A stretch of 64,000 nt of DNA from Dehalococcoidia bacterium (GTDB lineage: Bacteria; Chloroflexota; Dehalococcoidia; UBA2979), in NCBI GenBank assembly GCA_965262725.1, contig OZ253555.1:1280001-1344000 (forward strand). Direction: 5' to 3'. A program made the position numbers and the translations under genes. Below the pieces are notes generated by a model. That model was not told the origin of the DNA. It saw nothing but the letters and a program-made list of their open reading frames with translations, and did no database searches. Below are positions 2,820 to 62,345 of the stretch, in pieces (the stretch's first letter is position 1; every line of letters begins with the position of its first letter).

Positions 2820-5663
2820 GTGAGTAAGCCGCCCGCAGGCCCCACCCAGCCCGATCGGGAAGCGCCGGGACGCAGCCGCTACGTGCGCGTCGCCGTCAAC
2901 TCCGGGCAGCGCACGGCTATGACTTTCACCTACCACGTGCCGCCGGGGCGGGAGGTCCGTGCGGGCGAGGTCCTGCACGTCCCGTTCGGGGCGCGCACGC
3001 TGCAGGGGGTCGTCGTCGAGGGTCCATTCGACCTTCCCGGGTACGCCGGCACGACCCGCCCGATCGATCCCCCGGTGGAGGGCGCGCCGGTGATCACGGC
3101 GCGGCGCCTCGAGCTCGCGCAGTGGATCGCCGATCGCTACCTCGCGCCAGCTTGGGAGTCCTACGCGCTGATGCTGCCGCCGGGCGCGAGTGAGCGCCCG
3201 CAGACTCTTGTCGCGCGGGCAGCCGGCGGGCCGCAAAACGACGGTGATCCGGAGGCGCATCCCCGCCTGCCGGAGCCGCAGGCACGGCTCTACGCCCTGC
3301 TCGGCCCGGATCCGCGCCCCGCGGAGGAACTGCGCGCGAAGGCGGGCGAGCGCGCTTTCGACCAGGCGCTGGCAGCCTTGGTGCGACGGGGTCTGGCTGA
3401 GAAGCGCTATCGGCTGGGGCGGCCGCGCGGGCGAGCGCGCGTGGCCGAAGTCGTGCGCCTGCTCGTCCCGCCGGAGCGTGCGCGCGCTGCCGCGCTCGCG
3501 ATCGAGGGGCGCCGGCGGTCACGACCGGCGCGCGTGCTTCGTGCCCTGCTGGATGCGGGCGTGCCGCTTCCCTCCGAGGAGCTCGCCCGGATCGCGCGCG
3601 GCCGCGCGGTGGTCGAGGCGCTCGTGAGGGACGGTGTGCTTGAGCCCGCTCCCCCTGGCGAGGGGAGCGGATCCGGCCCGCGCGGGGAGGATTCCCCCGG
3701 GGCGCTGCGCCTCGCCGTCTCGCGCGAACGGGCGGAGCGCGCGGCGCTGCGCCTCTCGCGCACGCGCGCCGATGAAGCGTCGGCCGCACTCCTCGAGCGG
3801 CTCGCGGCCGACGCCGAGGGGGGCCGCGAGCCGACGGCGCGGCTAGCGGGCCTCGGCCGCGAGCTGGGCCCCGGCGCGCGGGCGGCGGTGGAGCGACTGG
3901 CCGCCGAGGCGCTCGTCGCCGTCGACGAGGTCCTGGATCGGCGCGACCCTCTCGCCGGACTCTCCGTGCTCACCCGCCCGCGCCCGGAGCTGATCGGCGA
4001 TCAGCGGGTCGCCTCGGCGCGGGCACGCGCGCTCATCGACCGCGCCGCGACGGGCGGGGATGGCGGCACGCCGCTGCTGATGGTGGGCGTGACCGGATCC
4101 GGGAAGACGGAGGTCTACCTCGATGCGCTGGCGCACGCCGTCGACCGCGGGCGGCGCGGCATCGTCCTCGTTCCCGAGATCGCCCTCACGCCGCAGACCG
4201 TGCGGCGCTTCGCGGAGCGTTTCCCCGGCCGCGTCGGCGTGCTCCACTCCGGGCTCTCGCTGGGCGAGGCATTCGACGAGTGGCACGCCGCGGCAGAGGG
4301 CCGCTACGACGTCGTCATCGGCTCGCGATCGGCGATCTTCGCGCCGGTGCCCGACCTTGGCCTAGTCGTAGTCGACGAGGCGCACGAGTGGACCTACAAG
4401 CAGGAGGATCCGCAGCCCCGCTACGACGCGCGCGACGTCGCGGCGCGCCTCTGCGAGCTCGCGGGCGCCGCGCTCGTGCTCGGTACCGCGACTCCGTCGG
4501 TGGAACAGTGGTATCAGGCGGTCTCGGGTGAACTGGAGCGGGTCGACCTTCCGCGGCGCGTGCGCCCGGTGCCGCAGCCCGGCGGGGGCGTCGCGGTGTG
4601 GCCCTCCGACGAAATGCCTGAGGTCGAGGTCGTCGACATGCGGGGCGGGCGCTCCCTCTTCTCGGAGCACCTCGCGCTGGCGCTCGGGGAGACGCTCGAG
4701 CGCGGCGAGCAGTCGATCCTCTTCCTCAACCGCCGGGGCCTCGCCGGCTTCCTGCTCTGTCCGCAGGGGCACTCGCCCGAGTGCTCCTCGTGCGACGTCT
4801 CGCTCGCGCTCCACACGCGGGGCGAGCCCTCCGGCGGCGCTCCCCCTCCAGACGAGGGCCCCGCCGCCCGCCGCCGGGTTCTGGTCTGCCACCAGTGCGG
4901 GCGCCGCCGGGGGGTGCCGGCGGCGTGCCCTCGCTGCGGCGGCGCCCTCGGGCCGGCGCGCGCCGGCACGCAGCGCGTGGAGCGCGAGGTGCGCCGCCTC
5001 TATCCGGCGGCCCGTGTCGCGCGCTGGGACCGAGACACGGCCCGCCGGCGCGATCATCACGAGGCGATCCTCGGGCGGTTCCTGGGGCAGGAGATCGACG
5101 TCCTGGTCGGAACGCAGATGGTGGCGAAGGGTCTCGACATCCCTGCGGTCACGCTGGTCGGGGTCGTGCTCGCCGACTACACGCTACGCGAGGGCGACTT
5201 CCGCTCGCGCGAGCGGACCTTTCAGCTGCTCGTGCAGGTCGGCGGCCGGGCCGGCCGGGCCGAGCGGCCGGGCCGGGTCGTGATCCAGACCCTGCAACCG
5301 GAGGACCGCGCCGTGGAGGCGGCCGCGGCGGGTGATGTTGATGGCTTCCTCGAGCAGGAACTGCAGTGGCGGGCGGCTCACGACTACCCGCCGATCCGGC
5401 GCCTGGCTCGGTTGCTGTTCGCACATCCACGCCTCGCCTATGGAGCGGAGGAGGCCGCCCGCGTGGCGACGGAGGTGCGCCGGCTGGCCGCCGGAGCCCC
5501 CCACGTCGAGGTGCTCGGGCCGTTGCGGCCGCGCTTCGCGCGCGTGCGCGGGCGCCACCGCTGGTCGATCGTCGTTAAGGCAGACGACCCGTCCACCCTC
5601 CTGCGCCCACTTGCCCTCCCCGCCGGCTGGCGTGTGGACATCGATCCGGCCAGCGTCGACTGA
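2820..5663 (+). CDS. priA: Primosomal protein N' (replication restart helicase)
   Basis: GVTGSGKTEVY, LVPEIALTPQ, VDEAH, LFLNRRG, Zn knuckles, GTQMVAKGLD, VDIDP. Confidence 0.95.
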   Translation: MSKPPAGPTQPDREAPGRSRYVRVAVNSGQRTAMTFTYHVPPGREVRAGEVLHVPFGARTLQGVVVEGPFDLPGYAGTTRPIDPPVEGAPVITARRLELAQWIADRYLAPAWESYALMLPPGASERPQTLVARAAGGPQNDGDPEAHPRLPEPQARLYALLGPDPRPAEELRAKAGERAFDQALAALVRRGLAEKRYRLGRPRGRARVAEVVRLLVPPERARAAALAIEGRRRSRPARVLRALLDAGVPLPSEELARIARGRAVVEALVRDGVLEPAPPGEGSGSGPRGEDSPGALRLAVSRERAERAALRLSRTRADEASAALLERLAADAEGGREPTARLAGLGRELGPGARAAVERLAAEALVAVDEVLDRRDPLAGLSVLTRPRPELIGDQRVASARARALIDRAATGGDGGTPLLMVGVTGSGKTEVYLDALAHAVDRGRRGIVLVPEIALTPQTVRRFAERFPGRVGVLHSGLSLGEAFDEWHAAAEGRYDVVIGSRSAIFAPVPDLGLVVVDEAHEWTYKQEDPQPRYDARDVAARLCELAGAALVLGTATPSVEQWYQAVSGELERVDLPRRVRPVPQPGGGVAVWPSDEMPEVEVVDMRGGRSLFSEHLALALGETLERGEQSILFLNRRGLAGFLLCPQGHSPECSSCDVSLALHTRGEPSGGAPPPDEGPAARRRVLVCHQCGRRRGVPAACPRCGGALGPARAGTQRVEREVRRLYPAARVARWDRDTARRRDHHEAILGRFLGQEIDVLVGTQMVAKGLDIPAVTLVGVVLADYTLREGDFRSRERTFQLLVQVGGRAGRAERPGRVVIQTLQPEDRAVEAAAAGDVDGFLEQELQWRAAHDYPPIRRLARLLFAHPRLAYGAEEAARVATEVRRLAAGAPHVEVLGPLRPRFARVRGRHRWSIVVKADDPSTLLRPLALPAGWRVDIDPASVD

Positions 5664-21296: not shown

Positions 21297-22628
<1,332 letters not shown>

Positions 22629-22705
22629 CGTCCGCGCCGATCGGGGTCCCGAACCGCTCATCTCCCGGGGTGGCGCCGACGGCGGTGCATGCGCCGCGCG
22701 CGCGA

Positions 22706-22711
22706 TATGCT
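22706..22711 (+). promoter_or_regulatory. Putative -10 box TATGCT, 6 nt before ATG 22718 (leaderless-type), upstream of the intron and nadK
   Basis: Same TAnnnT-6nt-start geometry as seen at priA, hemW, fmt and rarA in this window. Confidence 0.45.
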
Positions 22712-22814
22712 CCCCCGATGACGCAATCATCCACGTCGCGCGGATGCCGCGGCCTCCCCGACGGGATCGCGACGGCGCGCGCGTCGCTTCACGCCGTGTT
22801 CGAGTCCGTGCTGC

Positions 22815-23676
22815 GTGCGTCCGGAAGTCGAAGGGGTGGTGACGTGATGACGTGACCGGTCCGGAGACATGCTCGTTGCTGCCAGCCGGTGAGAGTCCGG
22901 CACGGGTAACTGTCAGGAGGCCCGTTAGCAGGTCGGCGGCGTGGACGGGAAACGGTCTGCGTCGAAGCCCGACGTCAAGAGCCCTATGAGGGGGAGCAAA
23001 CGTGCGGTCCGCAGCATGACGCGAAGTCTGCCGCGCCGTGAGACTCGCCTGTCTATTGACAGGACCAAGGAGGAGCCGAGCCCGGGTGGTCAGGGCGAAG
23101 GCCATGGACGAGGTGAAGATCCTGGAATGCAGCCTCAAGAAACCTCCCGGCGTATGGGACGTGGAACGTACGGAAGGTAGCGACGGGAACCGGAGAAGCC
23201 CTCCCCGGCCCGGCACCCTGTGAGAGGGCGTCGGAGCGAGGCGTCCTATAACCGGTCAGAGCCGGGAAGTGGACAGCCAGCCGGAAGGGTGGCGGAGGGG
23301 GTCGTAGTACCGCTGGAGCCGGACGGACAACATAACCGCCGGTGATGGGAAGGACCCCTACTTTGTCCGTGCATGTTGCTGGGGGTGTGGACTGGTGAGT
23401 GCCCCTCGGGGCTAGCAACCACTTGGTAGGGTTCGAGGCTCTCCGCACATGCTGTACCGGCTGGCCAAGGCACGACCCACGTTGTGGGGAGCGCTGCATG
23501 CCATCTGGTGAAGGGCATCGGTGAGCCGGATGAGGGAGAACCTCACGTCCGGTTCGATGTGGCAGGGGCTGGAGACGGACGCTGCTATGGCCGTGGAGTT
23601 GGGCACCACCGGGAAACCGGCTTGGAACTGATGCGCCACCGCCTACGGCTCGCACCGCGCCAGCCCCTGACCCTAC
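22815..23676 (+). mobile_element. ORF-less group II intron (ribozyme with deleted RT ORF)
   Basis: 5' GTGCG at 22815. DI closing stem TCCGG/CCGGA. DIII-like GGGGTCGTAGTACC...GGGAAGGACCCC. DV GAGCCGGATGAGGGAGAACCTCACGTCCGGTTC (23523-23555) with AGC triad and AC bulge. DVI GGCAGGGGCTGG/CCAGCCCCTG-A-CC with bulged A at 23670. 3' end ...CCCTAC. No RT-length ORF. Confidence 0.92.
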
Positions 23677-23695
23677 CGTGGAGGATCCGGTCCGT

Positions 23696-24568
23696 ATGAG
23701 CGCGCGCCGCGTCGTTGTCTGCTACCACCCCGGCATCGCCGGCGCGCGTGACCTGGCGGAGGGGATCTCGGAGCAGCTCCGTCGCGCCGCGTGCGAGCCG
23801 TGGATCGTCCCGCTCGGCGACGAGGGCGCGGTGGGCGTCGATCTCGCGGCTCAGGCGGAGGGCGCCGCTCTCCTGGTCTGTGTGGGAGGCGACGGAACCG
23901 TCCTGCGTGCCTCGGAGGCGGCGGGCCTCACCGGCACCCCGATCTTCGGCGTGCGCATGGGGCGCCTCGGCTTCCTGACGGAGGCGACGCCGCCGGGCGC
24001 CCAGTCGGCGCTCTCGAGAGTCCTCGCCGGCGAGGGGCGCGTCGAGGAGCGTGCACTGGTGCTCGCCACCATCGACGGCGGCGAGCCGTTGCACGCGCTC
24101 AACGACGTTGTGATCGGGCGTCGCTCGCTTGGGCACACGATCTCGGTCGGTGCGCGGCTCGACGGCGTTCTGATCGCCGAGTACCGCGCCGACGCCGTCA
24201 TCGTCGCGACCGCCACCGGCTCCACCGGCTACACGCTCTCGATCGGCGGGCCGGTGCTCACGCCGACGTCGCGGGAGCTGATCCTGATGCCGCTCGCGCC
24301 GCACCTGACGTCGCACAACCCGCTCGTCCTGCCCGGCGACACGAGGATTTCGCTCGAGGTCGCGCGCGGCGATGGGATGGTGGTCGTGGACGGCGTGCAC
24401 GAGCGCGCCATCGAGTCGGGCCAGCGCATCGAGGTGACAGGTTCGCCGCGCCGCGCCCGCTTCGCTCGGCTCGGGGACGAGGGTCAGTTCTATTCGAATG
24501 TCGCCGATCGGCTCGGCTGGCTTCGCTCCGACCACACGCTCGGCGCCGCGGGCGGCGAGCGACAGTAG
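23696..24568 (+). CDS. nadK: NAD(+) kinase
   Basis: VGGDGTVL, GRLGFL, ALNDVVI, ATATGSTGY.LSIGGP. Confidence 0.95.
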   Translation: MSARRVVVCYHPGIAGARDLAEGISEQLRRAACEPWIVPLGDEGAVGVDLAAQAEGAALLVCVGGDGTVLRASEAAGLTGTPIFGVRMGRLGFLTEATPPGAQSALSRVLAGEGRVEERALVLATIDGGEPLHALNDVVIGRRSLGHTISVGARLDGVLIAEYRADAVIVATATGSTGYTLSIGGPVLTPTSRELILMPLAPHLTSHNPLVLPGDTRISLEVARGDGMVVVDGVHERAIESGQRIEVTGSPRRARFARLGDEGQFYSNVADRLGWLRSDHTLGAAGGERQ

Positions 24569-50883: not shown

Positions 50884-50960
50884 GGCCCCGTAGTGTAGCG
50901 GTCCAACACGCCACCCTGTCACGGTGGAGATCGTCGGTTCGAATCCGATCGGGGTCGCCA
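50884..50960 (+). tRNA. tRNA-Asp(GTC)
   Basis: Acceptor stem GGCCCCG/CGGGGTC, anticodon arm CCACC-CTGTCAC-GGTGG, T-loop GTTCGAATC, encoded CCA. Confidence 0.97.
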
Positions 50961-62257: not shown

Positions 62258-62345
62258 TGGTGCCGGGGGTGGGATTCGAACCCACACGCCGCTGGTGCGG
62301 CCGCGGGGTTTAAGCCCGCTGCGTCTGCCGTTTCGCCACCCCGGC
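62258..62345 (-). tRNA. tRNA-Leu(TAA)
   Basis: Reverse complement GCCGGGG-TGGCGAAACGGCAGACGC, anticodon arm GCGGG-CTTAAAC-CCCGC, long variable arm, GTTCGAATC, ACCA end. TACAAT lies just upstream. Confidence 0.96.

Follow-up and report, generated by a model that had tools for sequence, protein, structure and literature searches.

The group II intron in front of nadK is probably a recent copy of a multiplied, non-autonomous retroelement

Why should a ribozyme that encodes no protein lie a few nucleotides in front of the only NAD kinase gene of a bacterial genome, and is it there as a regulator or as a passenger? The window (that is, the whole 64,000-nt stretch of DNA that was analysed) has the gene order clpP, clpX, intron, nadK, GNAT gene, with every gene on the + strand; the clpX-intron-nadK context, which an initial annotation had read from the sequence, is borne out by Pfam matches (Table 1). 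A single PF20143 match genome-wide makes nadK the one NAD kinase gene. The intron, here called A, is intergenic and in sense with nadK, whose coding sequence is left intact because the insertion falls 3 nt upstream of the likely ribosome-binding site.

Table 1. Features of the locus (window coordinates), exon-binding sequences of A and its relatives, and genomic positions of solo copies of A with their orientation relative to local genes
Feature	Position	Strand or orientation	Remarks
clpX (upstream gene)	21297..22628	+	Pfam zf-C4_ClpX and AAA_2
Spacer block GCGCGATATGCTCCCCCGATGA	22700..22721	+	near-identical across three congeners (spacer alignment); candidate, possible nadK promoter or leader element
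IBS2 CGAGTC, 5' exon	22801..22806	+	6/6 pairs with EBS2; motif common to independent insertion sites
IBS1 GCTGC, final 5 nt of 5' exon	22810..22814	+	5/5 pairs with EBS1 (2 Watson-Crick, 3 G-U)
ORF-less group II intron A	22815..23676	+	862 nt; one of 24 identical copies
Domain I (approximate)	22820..23194	+	RNAalifold, seven introns
EBS2 GACUCG	23042..23047	+	loop co-varies with own 5' exon in A, B, C, G003, G008, G018
EBS1 GUGGU	23086..23090	+	positions 3-7 of 9-nt loop, hairpin 23080-23096
Domain II (approximate)	23195..23293	+	RNAalifold consensus
Domain III (approximate)	23294..23362	+	RNAalifold consensus; compensatory pairs, columns 498/556 and 501/553
Domain IV	23363..23519	+	degenerate remnant of RT ORF 5' end; ORF-deletion joint near 23478-23480
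Domain V	23523..23555	+	AGC triad, GAGA loop, 2-nt bulge; RF00029 and plastid DV models, compensatory pairs
Domain VI	23559..23673	+	about 115 nt, unusually long, branched; bulged branch-point A at 23670
GGAGGA, likely nadK ribosome-binding site	23680..23685	+	read from sequence; 3 nt past intron end
nadK	23696..24568	+	Pfam NAD_kinase and NAD_kinase_C; ATG at 23696
nadK-leader exon junction without intron A			GTGCTGC/CGTGGAGG
Intron A, EBS1 GUGGU			last 5 nt of 5' exon RCYRC
Intron B, EBS1 CAAUU			last 5 nt of 5' exon GGUUG
Intron C, EBS1 ACCCU			last 5 nt of 5' exon CGGGU
G003 intron, EBS1 GGAAU			last 5 nt of 5' exon CUUCC
G008 intron (two copies), EBS1 GGGAU			last 5 nt of 5' exon GUCCU / AUCCC
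G018 intron, EBS1 UCCCU			last 5 nt of 5' exon CGGGA
Solo copy of A	317108	sense	in RNase_T/ExoX-type exonuclease gene
Solo copy of A	1524130	sense	in D-type RT gene
Solo copy of A	1822597	sense	in large cadherin-like protein gene
Solo copy of A	1853597	sense	in ABC-2 permease gene
Solo copy of A	3057210	sense	in weak DUF429-like ORF
Solo copy of A	537614	antisense	in phosphotriesterase-family gene
Solo copy of A	1018206	antisense	in histidine kinase gene, between HisKA and HATPase_c
Solo copy of A	380701	antisense	directly upstream of DDE_3 transposase start
Solo copy of A	1963038		without gene assignment
Solo copy of A	2536486		without gene assignment

Judged by covariance models and by covariation among relatives, the element at 22815-23676 is a genuine, structurally intact ORF-less group II intron, as had been supposed at the outset; its splicing is predicted. 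The hallmarks that had been picked out by eye are all present: a GUGCG start (GTGCG, 22815-22819), a domain V, a bulged A located 7 nt from the 3' end, and the lack of a reverse transcriptase (RT), for which a PF00078 search inside the intron gave no match. With CCCTAC (23671-23676) at the other end, the termini conform to the GUGYG/AY rule. They are also fixed independently, since 24 copies at 100% identity meet unrelated flanks at precisely these two positions. The Rfam models that had been proposed as a check both match: group-II-D1D4-4 (RF02003) matches 22883-23019 on the + strand with 102.8 bits, far above its gathering score of 49, while RF00029, which covers DV and DVI, matches 23521-23676 in a permissive local scan with 37.5 bits (E 1.9e-5), slightly below its gathering score of 40, and its alignment places a long insertion in DVI. 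Two DV-only plastid models match 23523-23555 (30.7 and 25 bits).

Comparison with related introns (B and C of the same genome, and introns of the genomes designated G003, G008 and G018) adds covariation. RNAalifold finds compensatory double changes in 21 of the 161 pairs predicted for DI-DIII (seven related introns) and in 10 of the 54 predicted for DV-DVI (five sequences). The closing stem of DI (22820-22824 with 23190-23194; alignment columns 6-10 and 387-391) shows such changes, and is recovered when intron A is folded as a single sequence (z = -2.3). The long DVI is retained in A, B, C, G003 and G008, with two compensatory pairs in its basal stem.

The intron is far from alone. Searching the whole 3.67-Mb genome with its 862 nt yields 41 matches. 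An exact-string search finds 24 letter-identical copies of A, to which BLAST adds four that are truncated or interrupted, about 28 altogether; the siblings that the initial annotation suggested seeking have thus turned up as 27 further copies, and the related RT-encoding introns B and C are candidates for the RT donor sought with them. B is present in 12 copies of 2,074 nt with a mutual identity of 99.8-100%, and its ribozyme is 86-89% identical to A; the three copies of C are 79-81% identical to A. There are two polymorphic positions among the B introns and none among the 24 copies of A, a uniformity to be read with the nature of the assembly in mind: the genome, whose close relatives carry the label MAG, is apparently a single contig assembled from a metagenome, and polishing may homogenise repeats and exaggerate identity to 100%.

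Where did an intron without an RT come from? Nucleotides 1-664 and 666-862 of A match an uninterrupted, ORF-containing intron of 2,073 nt in G003, on either side of its RT ORF of about 1.2 kb, and domain IV of A still contains the RT N-terminus in degenerate, remnant form, its start-codon region conserved with B and C in alignment. Because the G003 intron matches both sides of the RT ORF and a remnant persists in domain IV, A is a descendant of an RT-encoding intron through deletion of about 1.2 kb from domain IV. A-like DNA occurs in 4 of the 40 other related genomes searched; the 862-nt ORF-less form was found in none of the 40.

How does A find its sites? The window site, CGAGTC...GCTGC, matches EBS2 and EBS1 of intron A. 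The initial annotation had proposed EBS1-IBS1 recognition of this exact site, and to that extent it was right: EBS1 and EBS2 do pair with it. Its choice of loop was wrong. The strings on which it rested (GCTGC at 22810-22814, GCAGC at 23129-23133 and GCAGCA at 23011-23016) are all there; the GCAGC loop is rejected as EBS1 because the same loop is present in A and in B, whose targets differ. Covariation across seven related introns instead puts EBS1 at GUGGU, 23086-23090: this loop has six different sequences over the seven introns, each the in-register complement of its own exon end. Of the 13 A sites that were scored, ten have 5/5 pairing with EBS1 and three have 4/5; with EBS2, five have 6/6, six 5/6 and two 4/6. 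Pairing of at least 4/5 for EBS1 together with at least 5/6 for EBS2 is found at 11 of the 13 sites, against 2.7% of 200,000 random genome positions; a 14th site, that of the interrupted solo copy, has 4/5 and 5/6. The first base of the 3' exon varies among the sites (it is an adenine in 8 of 13). An EBS2 is used as a criterion against membership of class C, and its presence in A argues against that class.

A has its home site within the sequence that encodes the RT-3 motif of B and C, and every copy of that site is occupied, so that B and C with their inserts are twintrons. The insertion point (nt 1116 of B) lies within ...CFESIPH/DRLM..., that is, ...VETDIASCFESIPH/DRLMTAVEE..., the stroke marking the junction. 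The 12 B introns harbor 12 exact copies of A and one interrupted copy; at the homologous place in the three C introns there are one exact and two damaged copies. One B intron carries two A copies head to tail, and this tandem pair shows that an occupied site keeps its 5' exon and so is open to a second invasion. With A in place the B RT frame hits a stop shortly inside A; in silico excision of A joins ATACCGC to ACGACC and leaves an open frame of 461 codons, and the restored protein is identical to the uninterrupted G003 RT at 396 of 460 positions, gap-free over the junction. In all 15 B and C introns the N-terminal PF00078 (RVT_1) match ends at profile position 89, and the C-terminal part picks up at position 84, or at a later one if a second insertion lies in between. 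All 15 RT genes are split by A, and therefore no cognate RT gene is uninterrupted: a PF00078 search of the whole genome found none (0/15).

Has A thereby put an end to its own mobility? One could suppose that the burst is over, that A became immobile upon inactivating every cognate RT, and that the window copy is inert or a passenger capable only of splicing. The lack of an uninterrupted B/C RT gene would fit, as would the state of several B and A copies that are further broken by other insertions. Against this, splicing of A would leave the RT frame intact in six or more of the B::A copies, the 24 copies of A are all identical, the tandem pair is a re-invasion of an occupied site, and copy content apparently differs between samples, one of which (X1, discussed below) shows a flank missing from the assembly. 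We consider such a stranded state quite unlikely.

If A is mobile, what helps it? Full-length RVT_1 matches occur genome-wide at only 12 loci, with open frames of 475-500 aa, and these belong to an unrelated intron family, D/E. Its RTs, intact and (like those of B) without an endonuclease domain, might splice and mobilise A in place of the B/C RT, the more so as some Thermosynechococcus elongatus RTs are described as having relaxed specificity (PMC2882425). Yet that relaxed specificity, in the same account, holds only among RTs that are 84-100% identical, and the D RT is just 38% identical to the B RT; BLAST gives no match between the D/E ribozymes and A, and A retains the domain IV start-codon region that it has in common with B and C. 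The D/E family is accorded a small share of the likelihood; a helper of B/C type is the favored candidate, at somewhat better than even odds, with the rest going to some other helper or to none. B- and D-type RTs both combine RVT_1 and GIIM domains. The G003 homolog scores 396 bits with TIGR04416 (cut-off 300), and the nearest solved RT structures in the PDB are those of the GsI-IIC RT (3.3e-58), LtrA and the TeI4h RT, which are listed here as structural neighbors and not as the basis of a class tree.

Besides its copies in B and C, A has 12 solo copies, 11 exact and one interrupted. Their surroundings were assigned by Pfam searches on flanking ORFs, which replaced frame calling from GC3 (ambiguous on its own). 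At least two disrupt genes in antisense, a histidine kinase gene and one of the phosphotriesterase family (Table 1). Copies distributed in this way behave as a selfish element would, and not as a regulator. The orientation of the copies follows replication. The cumulative GC skew has its minimum at about 0.40 Mb and its maximum at about 2.51 Mb, and the sense strand of A is '-' up to 409,808, '+' from 537,614 to 2,536,486 and '-' again from 2,561,330. The terminus is imprecise, the skew being flat from 1.95 to 2.55 Mb; the copy at 2536486 sits 26 kb beyond the maximum. There are two exceptions to the strand rule (1451984 and 3120020), both of them B::A units; at all 12 solo sites the G-rich strand of the replichore is the one that carries the sense sequence of A. 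Gene orientation alone is insufficient to account for this bias, because three of the solo copies that obey the rule are antisense to local genes. From these 12 natural insertions, all on the G-rich strand, we infer that at the solo sites the intron RNA entered the lagging-strand template. RmInt1 is an example of an endonuclease-less intron that is primed at replication forks. Entry of this kind fits two published accounts: endonuclease-less introns are stated to take their primer from the replication fork (in the review PMC4424553), and strand bias of insertion has been surveyed by Miura et al. 2022 (PMC8919778).

Could the copies have been spread as DNA, by recombination or on insertion sequences, or be artefacts of assembly? 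The B::A units sit within repeated, transposase-like sequence, and some copies could have travelled along with it. At the 12 solo copies, however, there is no target-site duplication, the ends of the intron are exact and the 5' flanks are EBS-complementary; the flanks of B are more variable than B itself; and contigs of run X1 independently recover the junctions of several sites. Retromobility leaves next to no room for such explanations. (The antisense strand of B's repeated target resembles the C-terminal end of a transposase ORF, with a short open stretch at the copy examined.)

How old is the insertion in the window? In three of four same-genus genomes (G001, G002 and G003) clpX and nadK are adjacent without an intron; in the fourth (G004) about 1.9 kb separates them. 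Four public runs were also compared over 22400-24100 as assembled contigs. Two of these, X5 and X18, which come from two other studies, each yield one contig in which 22813 is followed directly by 23676; exactly 862 nt are missing, and the flanks differ at one position (22631 T>G). Comparison of the clpX-nadK spacer, proposed by the initial annotation, has in this way produced an empty site, in the three congeners and in these contigs. The run labels are 'DNA?' for X5 and '?' for X18: DNA would make the contigs an insertion polymorphism, RNA would make them ligated exons, and the ends are exact either way. Provided that the X5 and X18 contigs are DNA, the window copy is a very young insertion, recent and unfixed. 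X1 has contigs over both occupied junctions of the window copy and also shows a 3' flank of A that is absent from the assembly. The A content appears to differ between samples: word depth in the intron relative to the flank is about 500/15 in X1, 154/36 in X5 and 18/11 in X18 (about 33x, about 4x and 1.6x), ratios that are not to be read as copy number.

These observations bear directly on whether A has been co-opted for regulation of nadK, for instance by splicing-dependent control of the leader in the manner of C.te.I1. The location invites the thought: the ribozyme is intact, nadK is single-copy, and A, in sense, occupies what is presumably the leader, with 3 nt between it and the ribosome-binding site. 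The same site, however, is empty in three of four congeners and in contigs with near-identical flanks from two other samples; the window copy is letter-identical to 23 others, some of them gene-disrupting, with no change of its own; and the preferred site of A is the RT gene of related introns. Domestication is therefore very improbable. Of the description first offered, "active, non-autonomous or domesticated", the first two terms are supported by the covariance models and the covariation, by 24 identical copies whose targets match the EBS, and by the insertion polymorphism seen from sample to sample; the third is not supported, in view of the empty sites and the gene-disrupting siblings.

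On the reading that we prefer (with a probability of about 85%), the window element belongs to a family of non-autonomous, ORF-less group II retroelements whose copy number has risen recently in this genome, and it was placed here by ectopic retrotransposition; it is not a domesticated regulator. The following sequence of events is proposed: 1) A would locate its DNA targets through pairing of EBS2 and EBS1 with the 5' exon and reverse-splice into the lagging-strand template at replication forks. 2) An endonuclease-less RT acting in trans, most likely of B/C type, would copy it; that RT could be produced only once A had been spliced out of the RT mRNA. 3) The clpX-nadK copy would have arisen by such an ectopic event, in sense and just upstream of the nadK ribosome-binding site. 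4) A would be co-transcribed with the nadK leader, starting, it is assumed, at the conserved block at 22700-22721 or by read-through from clpX. 5) A maturase acting in trans would splice A from the leader, restoring the ancestral one. The window copy may be tolerated because it is spliced out, or because its removal is not needed for translation, or both: with the ribosome-binding site and the start codon downstream of A, an unspliced nadK message should still be translatable.

Read-through is considered because a strict simple scan of 22500-23800 found no terminator-like site; it returned no intrinsic terminators and no sigma-70 promoter sites. The metatranscriptome run X19 offers one contig of 263 nt, internal to the intron (22966-23228, depth 2.9) and possibly DNA carry-over; it is the sole RNA-library match, and X19 holds no junction-spanning RNA contig at the window site.

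One can carry the second of these steps further and think of A as the obligate gatekeeper of its own helper: the splicing of A would set the supply of B/C RT, and through it the joint mobility of all three introns, in a self-reinforcing way. This is put forward tentatively, its chances being rather worse than even. If true, it would amount to a feedback loop between hyperparasite and host, able to drive bursts like the apparent one here.

For annotation, the consequences are simple: the clpX-nadK spacer is best labelled as holding a mobile intron, not a regulatory RNA, and the split B and C RT genes are best taken as twintrons, not pseudogenes. Natural systems of proliferating introns serve as models for intron spread and for reliance on common trans-acting splicing machinery; an uncultured lineage (relatives are labelled Dehalococcoidia) here offers such a system, with a datable insertion polymorphism beside a single-copy housekeeping gene. 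A literature search found no publications on group II introns of this lineage.

How does A compare with what is known elsewhere? C.te.I1 of Clostridium tetani is likewise an ORF-less bacterial group II intron (McNeil et al. 2014, PMC3919590). In contrast to A it is described as a single copy in a genome without a related RT gene, where alternative splicing leads to protein isoforms (PMC3919590, PMC4424553); A is multicopy, accompanied by related RT genes and, at the nadK locus, outside coding sequence. In its RTs without an endonuclease domain, and in an insertion orientation that tracks replication, the present system resembles the fork-primed, endonuclease-less bacterial introns as these are portrayed in PMC4424553 and PMC8919778.

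The closest system is that of the TeI3 and TeI4 introns of T. elongatus (Mohr, Ghanem & Lambowitz 2010, PMC2882425), in which ORF-less TeI3 introns are mobilised in trans and are nested in TeI4 ORFs. As recounted there, TeI3, like A, is an ORF-less family derived from one deletion of the domain IV ORF, with ORF remnants kept, and it has many near-identical copies, EBS-matched targets and an RT supplied in trans (for A, the last is inferred). Both systems place an inner ORF-less intron in the ORF of a related RT intron, the inner copies being identical and the outer ones differing; from this pattern Mohr et al. concluded that the inner intron had inserted later and independently (PMC2882425). 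The differences lie in the RT gene: in TeI3/TeI4 the inner intron falls between the first two ATGs, so that RT can be made without splicing, and two introns are reported with continuous ORFs (PMC2882425), whereas here the RT-3 motif is split in all 15 cognate genes. The hosts also differ, the relatives of the present one being labelled Dehalococcoidia MAGs.

Nested group II introns of Methanosarcina acetivorans were reportedly the subject of a study by Dai & Zimmerly in 2003. They make the second closest system: according to Zimmerly & Semper 2015 (PMC4424553), ORF-less and RT-encoding introns home site-specifically into related introns, either their sequences or their ORFs, creating perpetual homing sites and multi-level nests. 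That host is archaeal, and A by contrast is found also at 12 or more ectopic chromosomal sites, host genes included. What distinguishes A from both of these systems is the use of an RT-3 catalytic motif as homing site, with all 15 cognate RT genes occupied, and, further, its many ectopic insertions in host genes and its different host lineage. The A family is among the larger identical-copy families reported, and it shows a tandem re-invasion and a clean replication-strand bias.

All 12 copies of B, one of the related RT-encoding introns that host the ORF-less intron A inside the RT gene, share a single repeated target, ...GGTGAGGTTG/TCAAGGATCTGG... (the stroke marks the insertion point), and B's flanks differ more from copy to copy than B itself does. 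Read in antisense, this target resembles the C-terminal part of a transposase ORF. Copies of B and of A are themselves broken in several cases by extra insertions of 1.2 to ~4 kb whose joints are marked by 4-13-bp overlaps; one of these insertions bears terminal inverted repeats, in the manner of an IS element. The order of nesting is the following: the repeat contains B, B contains A, and A contains an IS or another intron.

Outside the window, a single B intron holds two A copies head to tail. The pair suggests that an occupied site was invaded again, a step for which the 5' exon suffices. Congener G003 has an uninterrupted B-like RT ORF with a near-perfect target for A (TTCGAGTCGATTCCGC/A; the stroke marks where the intron would enter); a search of the G003 genome for the ORF-less A found none. 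In the public sequencing run X1, one A 3' junction (a loose end behind 23676) continues into a flank that is absent from the assembled genome: this is an additional insertion site, either in a subset of the population or in another organism of the X1 sample.

Domain VI of A is ~115 nt long and branched, with an internal hairpin capped by GAAA; conservation of the long domain VI in all relatives is backed by covariation. The spacer between clpX and nadK, in which the window copy of A lies, has its own conserved block, GCGCGATATGCTCCCCCGATGA, which is near-identical in three congeners, the remainder of the spacer having diverged; the block is a possible promoter or part of the leader. The clpX-nadK gap of congener G004 extends to ~1.9 kb, against a short spacer in the other three congeners.

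Across the whole source genome (G000), 59 matches to RF00029, the Rfam group II domain V/VI model, were found at E<=0.01. Part of the group II intron complement is the D family, unrelated to A, B and C, which encodes intact endonuclease-less RTs of 475-500 aa; full-length RT frames are present at 12 loci. An RT-encoding intron, E (1,923 nt, 85% identical to the D family), interrupts domain V of one A copy at A position 722/723. E-like copies (92% identity to E) occupy the equivalent domain V position of three B-like introns in G008, a genome of another genus. The homing site of the E family looks like the catalytic domain V of another intron.

Coordinates of the features discussed, and of tRNA genes in the window
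Feature	Location	Strand	Rfam match
Conserved spacer block	window 22700-22721		
Domain VI of A	window 23559-23673	+	
tRNA gene	window 50884-50957	+	RF00005, 65.2 bits
tRNA gene, long variable arm	window 62261-62345	-	RF00005, 56.5 bits
Extra insertion in B/A copy	G000:C1:291405-294032 (example)		
Tandem A pair	G000:C1:549500-551223		
E (outside the window)	G000:C1:734423-736345		
Extra insertion in B/A copy	G000:C1:1391733-1392940 (example)		
D-family RT locus (example)	G000:C1:1849783-1851697		
B target flanks (example)	L015:1-384 and 3321-3862		
Locus of the uninterrupted B-like RT ORF, G003	L021:1-3659		
clpX-nadK gap, G004	G004:C6:23695-25605		
E-like copies, G008	L036:6171-8086; L037; L038
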